DNA of 64,000 nucleotides from Alphaproteobacteria bacterium (GTDB lineage Bacteria > Pseudomonadota > Alphaproteobacteria > Rhodospirillales > WMHbin7): assembly GCA_015232335.1 (NCBI GenBank), contig JADFZV010000014.1, positions 253-64,252 on the forward strand. The letters run 5' to 3'. Made by a program: the position numbers and the translations under genes. Below, piece after piece: positions 2,725 to 61,463 of this stretch (within the stretch, counting starts at the first letter, position 1; every line of letters starts with the position of its first letter). The notes beneath the pieces are model-generated. The model worked only from the letters and a program-made list of their open reading frames with translations, ran no database searches and had not been told where the DNA came from.

Positions 2725-4443
2725 ATGACTGCGAATTCACTCGGGAAAAACGCACCCCCTCGCTTTTACCAGCGCTTCATTGGCGGTGTCGTTCAGAATC
2801 ATGACTGGCCGCGCATAACCACGCAACTTAGTGGGGCACAGTTTCAGCCGCGCGACGCTGGGCTTAATTTCCTGATTATCAACGCCCCCATCCGTGAATG
2901 GTCTCAACCAAATATTCTGCCCTTGGGACAAAGTTTTGTCGGTGCAGTTTCTGTCATGGATGGCCATCGTTTGCATGTGCTGGACCTTAACGCCATGCGA
3001 CAGAGGCCGATCAGAGACAATCCCCAGGCCTTTACAAGCTGGGTGCTTGAGAAGCTAACAGAATGTTTGTCTTCCTTTAGGCCAGACGTTATTGGCATCG
3101 GCGGCATTATCACACAGTATGCCCGCATCAAGCGCATGACCGAGCAGTGCAAGCGAATTCACCCGGATATTCCGATTATTTTAGGTGGCGGCATTGCAAC
3201 CTGTATGCCGGAGTTTATGCTTCGGCGCCTGGACATCGATATCGTCGTGCGCGAGGAAGGTGAGCTGACGATATCAGAATTGCTGGAGAGAATTGAATTG
3301 GCCCAGCCGCTTGACGGCATCAAAGGCACACTTTTCAAACGCTACAACGGAGACGGATCTTTCGACATCGTAGACAACGGCATCCGCCCACAAATTGGAG
3401 GTCGCGAGCTAGGGTTAGACGCCTTACCCTGGCCCTTGCGCTCGCGTTGGCCTGAGGAAGATGTTTACAAGCATAATCCGATTGGACATCTGAACTGGCA
3501 GAATAAGTGGAAGGACGGTGCCGCCACTGATGCAGGATCCTATTCCCTGGCCATGCTCGGCTCGCGCGGTTGTCCCTATGCGGTTAATGCCTGTGATTAT
3601 TGCTATACGACCTATCTTGGCCCCAAGTACCGGCTCAGAAGCCCTCGCGAGGTGGTCAACGAGATGGAGGCTCTGAAGAGTGAGTACGGCGTGAACTATC
3701 TGCACTTTCTCGACGATCTGCTGATTGCCAACCCTAAATGGGCCTACGAACTTTTCGACGAGCTGAAATTGCGCAGGCGCCAGACTGGTTTCAAGATTGA
3801 GTGGGGTGGAACCTGCCGGACGAATATAATCGCCGCTGAGGTATTGAAGGCCAGAAAGAGTGGCGCCCCATCCATTCTTGAACGCGCCTATGAGGTCGGC
3901 ATGCGCCAAGCTGGCTATGGCGTGGAAACAGGCAGTCCCACCATATTAAAGTCTATAGACAAATCGGGACAGACTGTCGATGCAATCCGTGTCGCCATAG
4001 GCGAAACCATTCGTGTGTTTGGCTATGCTGATTGCTCCTTTATGATTGGATCGCCTGGAGAGACCCGGGAGACTGTTCGGGAGACAGTAGAGTTATGTAA
4101 GGAAATTGGCCTTGCCCCTGAGGTTTTTTTCTTCACAACGGCCTATCCCGGCACCACCTTCTGGCAGCTCGCTCTCAAGAAGGGATTGGTGGCAAAAGCC
4201 GTTACCGGAAAGCCAGGCCCTGCTGACGAAGACATGATCGAGGAGTATTGCATGCGTCTTGGCGAGCAGGGTGATGCCGTAAGAACCAACTTCAGTGACT
4301 TGCCAGACGAGGAAATTGTCGAACTCTCCTGGTGGGCTGTGAAGGAGCTTGGGGCACAGAACGTTTACAGGCATCCCCATACGGGCGATATCGAGCCCGA
4401 GAGATCCCCTCTTGTCAGGGGAGCCAACGATGCCTCTTTATGA
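2725..4443 (+). CDS. Cobalamin-dependent (class B) radical SAM protein with non-canonical Cys spacing
   Basis: N-terminal B12-binding-like domain (PDVIGIGGII, PIILGGGIAT, VVREEGE); SRGCPYAVNACDYC; HFLDD, GYGVETGS, FMIGSPGET, AYPGT. Confidence 0.85.
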   Translation: MTANSLGKNAPPRFYQRFIGGVVQNHDWPRITTQLSGAQFQPRDAGLNFLIINAPIREWSQPNILPLGQSFVGAVSVMDGHRLHVLDLNAMRQRPIRDNPQAFTSWVLEKLTECLSSFRPDVIGIGGIITQYARIKRMTEQCKRIHPDIPIILGGGIATCMPEFMLRRLDIDIVVREEGELTISELLERIELAQPLDGIKGTLFKRYNGDGSFDIVDNGIRPQIGGRELGLDALPWPLRSRWPEEDVYKHNPIGHLNWQNKWKDGAATDAGSYSLAMLGSRGCPYAVNACDYCYTTYLGPKYRLRSPREVVNEMEALKSEYGVNYLHFLDDLLIANPKWAYELFDELKLRRRQTGFKIEWGGTCRTNIIAAEVLKARKSGAPSILERAYEVGMRQAGYGVETGSPTILKSIDKSGQTVDAIRVAIGETIRVFGYADCSFMIGSPGETRETVRETVELCKEIGLAPEVFFFTTAYPGTTFWQLALKKGLVAKAVTGKPGPADEDMIEEYCMRLGEQGDAVRTNFSDLPDEEIVELSWWAVKELGAQNVYRHPHTGDIEPERSPLVRGANDASL

Positions 4444-59304: not shown

Positions 59305-61463
59305 TCTGTTCCCTTGCGGAAGACAAGTTGCAGGTTGGGGGCGAAGAATTCGAACGGAATGCCCAGTCGGGTACATGTCCAGGCCAGTGGCCCCCAGAAA
59401 ATGAGTTTCAGGCCCTTGCGCCAGCGTCCAGCCGTGTGGCGCAGGAAGAAAGGAAAACCATAACCAGCCTCTCGGCTGATATCTTCAGCAACCACCATTC
59501 TGCCTTTTGGCAAACACTCGCTGTAGCTTGCATTGCGCCATCCCGTGCCAGGGCGCATGAATTCTGCGAATGAGACCCCCTTCAGACGCCCCATCACCCT
59601 GGCATAGAGAAAGGCTGGCTCGGGTGAAAGGCGCGCTATCAACGGAATTCCGACACTGTGCGTTTCAAATGGATACCAGCGGTTGGGCGTGTCCAAAAAA
59701 GCGATGATGCCACCGGGCTTAAGCTTGCGCCAAATGGCATCGACATGTCGGTGCCGGTTCTCAAAGGGCAAATGCTCGACGACGGCAAGAACGATGATGA
59801 CGTCGAAGGAGGCGTCGGGATAGGGCAGATCGAGCGTCTGTTCCGAGGTCAGATGGTCGATGCGCGCCACCTTTCCAAGTTTCAGGTCGTAGCGCTTAAG
59901 CTCGACCACATCGACGAAAGCCTTGTCGACGTCATAAGCGAAGATCTCGCCGACGAAAGATTGCGCATTCAGATACTCAGTGATATGACCCGCTTCGCAT
60001 CCAACCTCAAGTATCCGAAGTCCCACGCCCCCCTGACGCGTCAGCCATTCTGAAAGGGGTTTGACATAGGCGATGCGCGACCTATTCAGCGTCAGATATT
60101 TCACCGCCCGCAATGCGCCTTTGCGCGCCACGATCTGCTCGATGACGCCTTTGGAATAAGGCGTTTCATGCGAACTTCCGTTGACTGTCAGGCGCCTGGA
60201 TTTCCCAAAGTCCTCGACCTGCCATTCCGCCAAGGCATCAGACACCGTGGCCTTCGGCCCGCGCATCAATAACATCATCAGCGCTCCCAGTGCCAAGCTG
60301 GCCAGCCACCAATTCTGCCATAGCCCAAAGCTCAGCATACCCTGGGCGGCATACCCTCCCATAAGTGCCGCCCCCGCCATCATGGCCTTGTGATTCGTCT
60401 GTCCGGCAACCCCTCTAGCCAGGCGCCACAAGACGAATACAAAGGCCAGGGTGCCGACAAAACCCAGCTCCAACCAAGACTGTAACGCGCCGTTATGTGG
60501 ATGGAGAGGCATGTATTCCACGCCCACAAAGCCCGGCACCGGAGTCCGTCCGCCTGGCACATCGCGCGAGGCATCAAGCCCCCATCCTATCAAAGGCTTT
60601 TCATGCCAGCGCTCAAGTGCAAATGACCAGATATGCAGCCGGTGCAAACTGGACCAGCCGATCGAATGCTCCAGACCCTGGAGCCCGCCTCGACGGACCA
60701 GGTAGTTTTCGAAGGCAAAAGGCATCGCCAGGACGCCGACGATGGCTGCGATTCCGAACAGCTTAAGGGCTCGGCCCTCAAACAGAATGACCGCCAGAAT
60801 CAAGGCAATGGCAAGAACGAAACCCAGAACGGGGGTCGAGGCGTAACCAAGATGAAGAATCAGGGCCGCAACAAGCAAGAACGAAAGGGCCGTTACTTTG
60901 CCCAGTCGTTCATGGGTTATCAGGGCGATCTGCGGCGAGAAAAGCGCCAGCAGGGAAACGCCGCTGTTGATATATGTGACATAGTCGTTCTTGCCGGGCG
61001 CACGCTCAAGATTCTTCAGCCAGGACATGAAGGCAAGATCGGTCGACAACTCGGCCCCCACCAGGCACAGCAGCAGCAGGCCGCCGACCAGCGCATATCT
61101 TTGCAGATTGCGCAGCATGGATTCGTCAAGTGCATCAATGGTTCGCCACAAGATCAGCGCTGCCGCCAGTACGCCCAAGACGCGTGCCGTCATCAAAACC
61201 GTATAGGCAGAATTGACAGCCCAGGGCGCAGTAGCCAGCGCATACAGCAAGAGCGGCGCAAAGGTCAGCACCGGCCAGCGCAGGCTCCCTTTGACAACCG
61301 CCTTTCGAGCTGATGGATCGAGCAAGACGGCACAGGCGCCAACACCGAGCAACAATGTCATTCCCTTGCTGGCGTAGACGGCGATAAAGGGCATGACCAG
61401 AAGGAGGCCGCGCAAGACCCAATTGGCAATCCGGAATTCTTCCTTCCGCTCAGTCTGTATCAT
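59289..61463 (-). CDS. O-antigen ligase (Wzy_C/WaaL) family protein fused to a C-terminal class I methyltransferase domain
   Basis: About 12 TM segments, RLHIWSFALERWHEKPLIGWGL, LHPHNGALQSWLELGFVG, then ILEVGCEAG, AYDVD, LPYPDASFDVIIVLAVVEHL, LKPGG..DTPNR in one frame. ATG 61463 has GAGG upstream and overlaps the gmd stop. Confidence 0.82.
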   Translation of the reverse strand: MIQTERKEEFRIANWVLRGLLLVMPFIAVYASKGMTLLLGVGACAVLLDPSARKAVVKGSLRWPVLTFAPLLLYALATAPWAVNSAYTVLMTARVLGVLAAALILWRTIDALDESMLRNLQRYALVGGLLLLCLVGAELSTDLAFMSWLKNLERAPGKNDYVTYINSGVSLLALFSPQIALITHERLGKVTALSFLLVAALILHLGYASTPVLGFVLAIALILAVILFEGRALKLFGIAAIVGVLAMPFAFENYLVRRGGLQGLEHSIGWSSLHRLHIWSFALERWHEKPLIGWGLDASRDVPGGRTPVPGFVGVEYMPLHPHNGALQSWLELGFVGTLAFVFVLWRLARGVAGQTNHKAMMAGAALMGGYAAQGMLSFGLWQNWWLASLALGALMMLLMRGPKATVSDALAEWQVEDFGKSRRLTVNGSSHETPYSKGVIEQIVARKGALRAVKYLTLNRSRIAYVKPLSEWLTRQGGVGLRILEVGCEAGHITEYLNAQSFVGEIFAYDVDKAFVDVVELKRYDLKLGKVARIDHLTSEQTLDLPYPDASFDVIIVLAVVEHLPFENRHRHVDAIWRKLKPGGIIAFLDTPNRWYPFETHSVGIPLIARLSPEPAFLYARVMGRLKGVSFAEFMRPGTGWRNASYSECLPKGRMVVAEDISREAGYGFPFFLRHTAGRWRKGLKLIFWGPLAWTCTRLGIPFEFFAPNLQLVFRKGTDYEGA

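Follow-up and report, generated by a model that had tools for sequence, protein, structure and literature searches.

Why should a bacterial surface-glycan locus carry five different cobalamin-dependent (class B) radical S-adenosylmethionine (SAM) genes? The question is raised by a 64,000-nucleotide stretch of contig JADFZV010000014.1 (assembly GCA_015232335.1, positions 253 to 64,252; hereafter the window), whose host is an uncultured alphaproteobacterium, predicted from its genes to be flagellated, to respire oxygen and to make its own cobalamin. Nonulosonic acids (NulOs) are found on flagella, lipopolysaccharide (LPS), capsules and S-layers, where phage adsorption and immune recognition depend on them. 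To our knowledge, the known NulO modifications are N-acyl and O-substituents introduced by conventional enzymes, and work on class B radical SAM enzymes has been confined almost wholly to antibiotic, pigment and cofactor pathways. A literature search found no paper that links radical SAM enzymes to nonulosonic acids; queries pairing radical SAM or cobalamin with pseudaminic acid, O-antigen or capsule returned nothing on point apart from non-B12 genes of Campylobacter fetus, and a 2026 review of B12 radical SAM enzymes makes no mention of glycan, polysaccharide or sugar. A sequence-only reading of this DNA had called class B enzymes in glycan loci largely uncharacterised, and this literature bears it out.

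We find that the window is a near-continuous series of glycan-biosynthesis genes, as judged from open reading frames (ORFs) listed in six frames and Pfam scans of 54 genes, and that it holds 15 methyl-transfer-type domains, five in B12 radical SAM enzymes and ten of the ordinary methyltransferase type. The earlier count of about 15 methylating domains is reproduced in full by Pfam, each where it had been placed: one nucleoside diphosphate (NDP)-sugar C-methyltransferase, two FkbM proteins, five stand-alone class I methyltransferases, two fused methyltransferase domains and all five B12 radical SAM genes, one of these with a sub-threshold B12 domain and one frameshifted. This inventory supports a surface-glycan island with an unusually large load of methyl-transfer genes. 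B12-binding matches number 22 genome-wide, and five fall inside the window, which is 1.9% of the 3.43-Mb genome and would be expected to hold 0.41 (about 12-fold; binomial P = 4.6e-5). We number the B12-type radical SAMs enzymes 1 to 5 (at 2710, 30827, 42952, 49176 and 55755), and their families likewise. Our preferred reading, at a probability of about 0.6, is that these are modular, rapidly exchanged tailoring enzymes for NulO and aminosugar building blocks. If several cobalamin radical SAM families do alter NulOs or their acyl chains at unactivated carbons, this would define a new sugar chemistry, supply gene candidates for unexplained C10 ulosonic acids, and show what much of the still uncharacterised class B radical SAM sequence space does in the cell. 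In addition, whole alleles and single cassettes are exchanged in this region, which shows B12 radical SAMs in use as interchangeable modules of surface variation.

Five radical SAM families and the genes beside them

Pairwise identity among the five enzymes is 20-28%, and by sequence they are five families related only at the superfamily level. The paired domains PF02310 (B12-binding) and PF04055 (Radical_SAM) are present in enzyme 1 (2710/2725-4443, plus strand; B12-binding 56.1 bits, Radical_SAM 57.3 bits), enzyme 3 (42952-44430, plus; 44 and 69.1 bits), enzyme 4 (49176/49245-51246, plus, ORF to 50828; B12-binding 41 bits) and enzyme 5 (55755-57431/57299, minus; 50.6 and 72.2 bits), and PF02310 exceeds its gathering score in these four. 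Enzyme 2 (30827-32392, plus) has a Radical_SAM domain (85.6 bits), while its PF02310 match falls short at 23.6 against a cut-off of 32.1 bits, a domain that most of its homologues of at least 47% identity do carry. The alternative starts at 2725, 49245 and 57299, like that at 61463 in a gene treated below, are internal ATGs and are consistent with the annotation of homologues and of a sister genome.

The radical SAM core contains CX3CX2C in four of the five enzymes. Enzyme 1, the exception, has CX6CX2C (C288/C295/C298) in the motif SRGCPYAxxACDYCY (window 3571-3603, residues 288-298), and all 31 family members compared share these cysteines as well as C147, C369, C442 and C463, so that CX6CX2C reads as a conserved variant and not a loss; the four further cysteines may form an auxiliary cluster. 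An AlphaFold2 model of enzyme 1 made from 24 sequences (predicted local distance difference test, pLDDT, 76.7; predicted template-modelling score, pTM, 0.82) has a class B fold, the top Foldseek matches being TsrM, OxsB, AprD4, CysS, TokK and MgmA (E 4e-19 to 5e-13). Fold comparison with solved class B enzymes covered enzyme 1.

Enzyme 1 is embedded in a co-directional, plus-strand block (433-9093) of genes with family-level matches to PseB, PseC, PseF, GNAT with a weak GT28_C, and NeuB with SAF. The block opens with a PseB-like UDP-GlcNAc 4,6-dehydratase (433-1497; Polysacc_synt_2, 329.8 bits) and a PseC-like aminotransferase of the DegT family (1506-2720; 401 bits), whose orthologue in the sister genome is named by NCBI UDP-4-amino-4,6-dideoxy-N-acetyl-beta-L-altrosamine transaminase. 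After enzyme 1 come a PseF-like cytidine monophosphate (CMP)-sugar synthetase (4349-5164; CTP_transf_3, 92.8 bits), a probable PseG-PseH fusion (5161-6672; GNAT 55.6 bits, Glyco_tran_28_C 17.8 bits and sub-threshold), a formyltransferase-like protein (6659-7345; Formyl_trans_C_2, 64.4 bits), a PIG-L family de-N-acetylase (7349-8044; 92.2 bits) and a PseI/NeuB nonulosonic acid synthase with a SAF domain (8038-9093; NeuB 282.4 bits). All six Pse enzyme types are therefore recognisable, and the window encodes a complete pathway of the pseudaminic-acid (Pse) type as read at the level of families, the choice between Pse and legionaminic-acid (Leg) stereochemistry being beyond what sequence can prove. 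The deacetylase and formyltransferase genes inside the Leg cluster of Candidatus Kuenenia stuttgartiensis, which correlate with free-amine and N-formyl NulOs (SugarBase preprint, bioRxiv 10.64898/2026.04.20.719630), have their like in the PIG-L and formyltransferase-like genes of this operon (6659-8044); unlike the Kuenenia cluster, the window pathway is of the Pse type and contains an additional B12 radical SAM gene.

Directly after NeuB stands a fused ABC exporter, with transmembrane and nucleotide-binding domains in one chain and PglK/MsbA-type architecture (9090-10958, plus; ABC_membrane and ABC_tran). The same arrangement is seen at one homologous locus (L039:2595-4430); at another (L041:10372-12210) such an exporter directly follows a B12 radical SAM fusion gene. 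Its position hints that export of lipid-linked glycans containing NulO is a conserved step.

Further downstream the window carries a second ulosonic-acid module (24951-28266, plus), comprising a GT2 glycosyltransferase (93.1 bits), a weak cytidylyltransferase-like protein (CTP_transf_3 19.3 bits, sub-threshold), a 356-residue protein and a NeuB without a SAF domain (154.9 bits), the assignment again resting on Pfam families. This module and a 472-residue protein encoded far downstream in the window (51368-52786) recur together at two loci, on a Chloroflexi contig and a Methylomirabilia contig (L003, L036), where the GT2, a degenerate cytidylyltransferase, the 356-residue protein, the SAF-less NeuB and the 472-residue protein travel together; the set looks like a portable second ulosonic-acid module. 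A search of the PDB with the 472-residue protein gave no match. The 356-residue protein (26255-27325) had been called Maf-like; it has no Pfam match at E<=1, no PDB sequence match and no fold match, and the Maf/MptE-like (PF01973) identity was dropped after profile hidden Markov model (HMM), PDB and fold searches, the last with a low-confidence model (pLDDT 63), were all negative. A true PF01973 match lies outside the window, at 204318-205343 of another contig of the genome bin (C11).

The module is followed by an acyl-activation cassette (28281-30830, plus), with an AMP-binding adenylating enzyme (202.7 bits), a 92-residue carrier protein (PP-binding 21.9 bits, above cut-off) and an AAC(3)-fold N-acyltransferase (Antibiotic_NAT 116.9 bits), and then by enzyme 2. 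Enzyme 3 is followed by a 725-residue polytopic membrane protein, weakly YfhO-like (44537-46714, plus; YfhO 19.6 bits, sub-threshold), by a sixth radical SAM gene with no B12 domain (46721-47845, plus) and by an NDP-sugar dehydratase/epimerase of the short-chain dehydrogenase/reductase (SDR) type (47826-48962, plus; GDP_Man_Dehyd 231.6 bits). The sixth gene had been described as a Twitch-type radical SAM: its Radical_SAM domain is confirmed at 59.2 bits, whereas SPASM (PF13186, residues 269-341) reaches 19.5 against a cut-off of 21.5 bits, which leaves the Twitch call plausible.

The homologues of these enzymes in other genomes provide the evidence on which our reading chiefly depends. Family 1 is represented at 36 homologous loci (59-66% identity) in about a dozen phyla, among them Rokubacteria, Methylomirabilia, Planctomycetes, Chloroflexi, Omnitrophota, Acidobacteria, Nitrospiria, Patescibacteria, Verrucomicrobia and a cyanobacterium. 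At least one Pse core gene lies within 6 kb in 34 of the 36 loci and at least two in 25, and the gene order pseB-pseC-radical SAM-pseF often recurs. Two family 2 homologues (57-58% identity) have NeuB, PseB/PseC-type, cytidylyltransferase, PIG-L and carrier-protein genes around them; a third (56%) lies at the end of its contig, behind two PseB-like SDR genes. Two family 3 homologues, 50-51% identical, each adjoin a large membrane protein: in the cultured Magnetospirillum moscoviense (L043) this is a 721-residue YfhO-like protein beside a Leg cluster, and at L064 a 601-residue protein of no assigned family, amid aminosugar genes and three SPASM radical SAMs. The partner of enzyme 3 in the window (44537-46714) is adjacent at L040, L043 and L064 as well.

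Family 5 is linked to CMP-sugar chemistry by gene fusions: a 762-residue member (P0246, L041:8001-10289) is joined to a CTP_transf_3 cytidylyltransferase, and a 797-residue member (P0252) to a class I methyltransferase. One further member lies 6 kb from NeuB (L066), and a 68%-identical relative occupies, in a related metagenomic island (L063), the same module of GDP-mannose 4,6-dehydratase, Wzy_C, methyltransferase, GT4, FkbM, PMT_2, methyltransferase-GT2 and DUF4910 genes as in the window, including a 375-residue GT4 like the one beside enzyme 5. We find, from these neighbourhoods, that in distant phyla four families (1, 2, 3 and 5) are met again next to NulO or sugar-nucleotide genes, family 4 being of the CysS/TokK type; because of this recurrence across phyla we take the enzymes to act, probably, in NulO or sugar-nucleotide chemistry and not to be passengers.

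Alleles and cassettes of a hypervariable region

The window, on contig C5, is syntenic with, and inverted relative to, C11:88000-150100 of the same genome bin. Nucleotide identity is 65-81%, and most window proteins have counterparts 50-96% identical and in the same order at 88-150 kb of C11, a version without the PhpK-like cassette, the methyltransferase-GT2/PMT_2/FkbM block and enzymes 4 and 5. A window-type island in the same order, at 89-99% nucleotide identity, lies on a 521-kb contig of a sister metagenome-assembled genome (MAG; GCA_015229215.1, 'Alphaproteobacteria bacterium'), an identity of gene order that rules out a chimeric assembly of the window. The left flank of the island in the sister MAG matches C11:150-158.7 kb at 91-95%, and beyond its right end are a glycosyltransferase, another B12 radical SAM and a SPASM gene, the last of which matches C11:40.9-41.8 kb at 95%. 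Since these flanks match C11, the window-type and C11-type islands share one chromosomal site, and the genome bin is either a merger of two strains or contains a real duplication.

Exchange is also seen at the scale of one gene. At the enzyme 4 slot (window 48996-51364, L040:16047-17795) the flanks are 92-99% identical, yet what they enclose in the sister MAG is an unrelated 513-residue B12 radical SAM, a swap of a single-gene cassette. Family 1 was found in none of 25 relatives, four of the same genus included, and family 3 in one of 400 other genomes of the class. The synteny with C11 and the sister MAG weaken the earlier description of one glycan island: by these comparisons the window is one allele, or haplotype, of a much larger hypervariable surface-glycan region. 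C11 is dedicated to glycans over about 0-234 kb, with 11 B12-binding matches, four NeuB-like genes and several SPASM radical SAMs. The same interval (C11:1-234000) also holds three heparinase II/III-like genes, a carbamoyltransferase, an adenylylsulfate (APS) kinase, a DUF4910 protein and the Maf/MptE-like gene at 204318-205343. Strain-to-strain exchange of whole alleles and of single B12 cassettes would diversify surface chemistry, replacement being presumably driven by phage or grazer pressure.

Methylation, other radical chemistry and cobalamin supply

How would such enzymes work? We propose that enzymes 1-5 act in the cytoplasm, their substrates being NulO or aminosugar precursors in nucleotide-activated form or the N-acyl side chains of these, and that their most likely chemistry is transfer of a methyl group from methylcobalamin to unactivated carbons, with the class I, FkbM and TylC3-type enzymes adding O-, N- and C3-type methyl groups. 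Thus modified, the units would be built up on a carrier lipid before export, after which they would be ligated to LPS or to proteins, transferred to flagellin, or both; the Wzy_C protein, the PglK/MsbA-type exporter and the GT-C enzymes of the window fit lipid-linked assembly and periplasmic ligation. The genome has one 273-residue flagellin gene, next to flgK, on a contig other than that of the window. The sequence-only reading had proposed a single, heavily methylated, hydrophobic glycan; the neighbourhoods point instead to tailoring of NulO and aminosugar building blocks and N-acyl chains, and several glycoconjugates may be made or served.

All five enzymes are putative methylases. Methylase precedents exist for three of them, enzyme 4 resembling the iterative C-methylases CysS and TokK, enzyme 5 the sp3 C-methylase QCMT, and enzyme 2 aligning end to end with the P-methylase PhpK; for enzymes 1-3, by contrast, AprD4 is the best or second-best match in the PDB. 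Enzyme 4 matches CysS and TokK (151 and 148 bits; the structures of CysS, from the cystobactamid pathway, and of TokK/ThnK, from carbapenem pathways, include 7KDX and 9N1B) over both the B12 and the radical SAM domains, and its homologues, at 660-710 residues, have a like length; the enzyme 1 model superposes on both. Unlike these iterative C-methyltransferases, enzyme 4 lies in a glycan island and not in an antibiotic cluster, is frameshifted, and scores 172 bits with NF033712 (KedN5), far under the cut-off of 700, its reading frame also falling short of intact length. Enzyme 2 aligns over nearly its full length with the PhpK/BcpD P-methyltransferase model TIGR04479 (residues 45-504 to model positions 35-501), at 369.8 bits where the cut-off is 600; unlike PhpK and BcpD it has no phosphonate or phosphinate pathway genes nearby, and its homologues occur in NeuB/PseB/PseC/carrier-protein clusters. 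QCMT/MgmA (9CCB), a methyl-coenzyme M reductase (MCR) glutamine C-methyltransferase (PMC12931638), is the best PDB sequence match of enzyme 5 (73 bits) and of enzyme 1, while TsrM (6WTE) is the best fold match of enzyme 1 (E 4e-19); the substrates of the two, protein and tryptophan, set them apart, and identity is only 15-19%.

The reading frame of enzyme 4 breaks at a C8 tract (50782-50789), beyond which the last 150 residues are encoded in a different frame. In blastx with a 42%-identical, 687-residue relative, frame +1 aligns to residue 522 and frame +2 over residues 515-660 (E 2e-16); comparison with distant in-genome paralogues gave no signal for this C-terminal continuation, which is seen with closer homologues, and a scan of metagenomes for close relatives of enzyme 4 confirmed none. 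Phase variation at the tract was considered and rejected: G/C homopolymers of at least 7 number 405 genome-wide, about equal to a chance expectation estimated roughly from base composition, and the window has no excess of them; by itself, therefore, the C8 tract does not speak for programmed switching.

Several points weigh against tailoring of NulO and aminosugar units by these five enzymes, and against methylation in particular. None of the five reaches a curated NCBIfam cut-off, enzyme 1 does not have the canonical CX3CX2C motif, and enzyme 4, frameshifted in this assembly, may be inactive. AprD4 (6fd2) is the best PDB sequence match of enzymes 2 and 3 (74.7 and 66.6 bits) and the second of enzyme 1, and class B enzymes also catalyse reactions other than methylation. 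For families 2, 3 and 5 the neighbourhoods inspected were two or three each. The glycan acceptor is a list of candidates (flagellin, LPS, other proteins), the former 'Maf-like' protein of 356 residues being without a match in Pfam, the PDB or fold space, and function in all five families is read from sequence, context and one model.

A bolder version of the methylation idea, which we hold tentatively, concerns enzyme 1 and perhaps others. Mass spectrometry has picked up higher-carbon (C10) ulosonic acids in CMP-activated form in Magnetospirillum gryphiswaldense, where they are still without an assigned gene (bioRxiv 10.64898/2026.04.20.719630; PMC8157484), and also in Methanococcus. Enzyme 1 could belong to a widespread, undescribed CX6CX2C class B family that C-methylates a Pse/Leg precursor or a CMP-sugar, extending or branching the carbon skeleton of the sugar; such a family would be the basis of the C10 CMP-ulosonic acids, and B12 radical chemistry would be a general cross-phylum means of diversifying sialic-acid-like sugars.

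It is rather doubtful that some or all of the five are not methylases and instead perform AprD4-like dehydration or deoxygenation, epimerisation, ring contraction or C-C bond formation on sugars; a product made of deoxygenated or rearranged sugars, and not of C-methylated ones, would be doubtful to the same degree. OxsB, BchE and HpnJ are class B members and not methylases, and GenK and GenD1, of the class B type, are aminosugar C-methylases of the gentamicin pathway. AprD4, the diol dehydratase of the apramycin pathway, is likewise of the class B type and acts on an aminosugar, paromamine; besides its sequence ranking it is among the fold matches of enzyme 1, and the block of enzyme 3 with a second radical SAM and an NDP-sugar SDR (46721-48962) recalls dehydratase-plus-reductase pairs. 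The match to AprD4 is, however, limited to the radical SAM core, and the supra-threshold B12-binding domain in four of five enzymes, the clear CysS/TokK likeness of enzyme 4, the QCMT likeness of enzyme 5 and the full-length alignment of enzyme 2 to a methylase family model all speak for methyl transfer. GenK, GenD1 and AprD4 work on free aminoglycoside pseudo-oligosaccharides in antibiotic pathways, unlike the window enzymes, which lie in primary surface-glycan clusters and probably act on nucleotide sugars.

We regard as improbable the earlier proposal that glycan structure is conditional on external B12 and low oxygen, making it a vitamin-dependent antigen or phage receptor. Between five and sixteen B12-type enzymes would indeed create a high cobalamin demand, and radical SAM clusters are oxygen-labile. 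Yet the genome has a de novo cobalamin cluster on contig C26 (CobN, three tetrapyrrole methylases, CbiC, CbiG, CbiX, CobD, CobO, CobU, CobT, CobQ and CobW), and its sole cobalamin riboswitch (C51:11240-11462; L058:6240-6462, minus strand) precedes cbiM-cbiQ-cbiO and not a B12 importer. Behind it, cbiM, cbiQ and an ABC ATPase gene form a cobalt uptake system of the energy-coupling factor (ECF) type, with a GT4 gene next to it. De novo synthesis and riboswitch-controlled cobalt uptake make dependence on exogenous B12 unlikely; the organism is likely a B12 producer that regulates cobalt uptake, and if glycan structure is conditional at all, the condition would lie in cobalt or in regulation. Five heme-copper oxidase family genes imply that the organism respires oxygen, which weakens the proposed dependence on low oxygen, although a microaerobic lifestyle is possible. 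Relatives of the same order have 1-26 B12-binding matches per genome, and the 21 found here at the same threshold are high but not unique, suggesting a lineage adapted to constitutive cobalamin use.

That the B12 radical SAMs act on lipids or hopanoids, peptides or phosphonates and are mere passengers in a recombination hot spot is very improbable, for all their weak HMM similarity to HpnJ, ladderane-lipid and ribosomally synthesised and post-translationally modified peptide (RiPP) maturase models and the likeness of enzyme 2 to P-methyltransferases: the HpnJ, ladderane and RiPP matches are far under cut-offs, Pfam scans of the window found no phosphoenolpyruvate (PEP) mutase, hopanoid or precursor-peptide genes, the homologues in unrelated phyla consistently lie in sugar-nucleotide or NulO clusters, and the cytidylyltransferase fusion exists.

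Remaining genes of the window and likeness to Campylobacter islands

The window further contains about a dozen glycosyltransferases, two GT-C-type membrane enzymes and SGNH proteins. The ABC exporter is followed on the plus strand by a GT2 (10965-11975; Glycos_transf_2 95.8 bits), a GT4 (11972-13156; Glyco_trans_1_4 54.5 bits, Glyco_transf_4 40.8 bits) and the first FkbM-family methyltransferase (13132-13932; Methyltransf_21 58.2 bits). Two class I SAM methyltransferases lie further on, at 16993-17757 (minus; Methyltransf_31 63 bits) and 17839-18753 (plus; Methyltransf_12 31.7 bits). Downstream of enzyme 2, and again on the plus strand, lie a methyltransferase-GT2 fusion (32550-34001; Methyltransf_23 64.9 bits, Glycos_transf_2 76.2 bits), a class I methyltransferase (33998-34768; Methyltransf_11 50.2 bits), a GT-C membrane glycosyltransferase of the PMT_2/ArnT-like kind (34765-36432; PMT_2 42.3 bits), the second FkbM-family methyltransferase (36461-37237; Methyltransf_21 83.5 bits) and a further class I methyltransferase (37244-38056; Methyltransf_11 65.3 bits). 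The NDP-hexose C-methyltransferase (39971-41200, plus) has the architecture of TylC3, with a zinc-binding N-terminal domain (Methyltransf_13 84.4 bits), a class I methyltransferase domain (55.6 bits) and a Methyltransf_14 C-terminal domain (169 bits).

Between enzymes 4 and 5, two proteins without assigned function (472 and 437 residues) and a DUF4910/DUF2172/HTH_47 protein (DUF4910 345 bits) are encoded on the minus strand (51368-55488). A GT4 gene (57416-58540, plus; Glycos_transf_1 110.4 bits, Glyco_transf_4 45.8 bits) overlaps at its start the start of enzyme 5 on the opposite strand and is followed by a class I methyltransferase (58537-59304, plus; Methyltransf_25 64.7 bits). On the minus strand a protein of the Wzy_C family (O-antigen ligase, polymerase or O-oligosaccharyltransferase; 45.1 bits) is fused to a class I methyltransferase (59289-61628, likely start 61463, 724 residues; Methyltransf_11 55.9 bits). 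The fusion is found in the sister MAG too (724 residues), and a stand-alone Wzy_C protein of 406 residues is encoded at L063:11592-12812.

The glycosylation islands of Campylobacter flagellin are among the nearest known systems, with NulO pathways, methyltransferases, a formyltransferase and DUF4910 (Cj1295-type) proteins. In C. fetus, phase-variable radical SAM genes stand beside methyltransferase and formyltransferase genes in the core phasome table, but these are non-B12 and have poly-G tracts (PMC6321876). Unlike the Campylobacter islands, where B12-type radical SAMs have not been reported, the window has no recognisable Maf, encodes features typical of lipid-linked glycan assembly (a Wzy_C protein, an ABC exporter and GT-C enzymes), and contains G/C tracts at chance frequency.

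The window closes with a GDP-mannose 4,6-dehydratase (61460-62425, minus; 352.6 bits) and a GT4 (62415-63608, plus; Glyco_trans_1_4 47.7 bits, Glycos_transf_1 46.4 bits) that is 89% identical in amino acids to C11:89767-88577. The intact dehydratase gene contains a run of ten G on its coding strand (62072-62081), possibly a slippage site or a sequencing artefact. The sequence there reads LGGGI; neither the sister MAG nor the C11 paralogue has the tract, and both read LGGDI.

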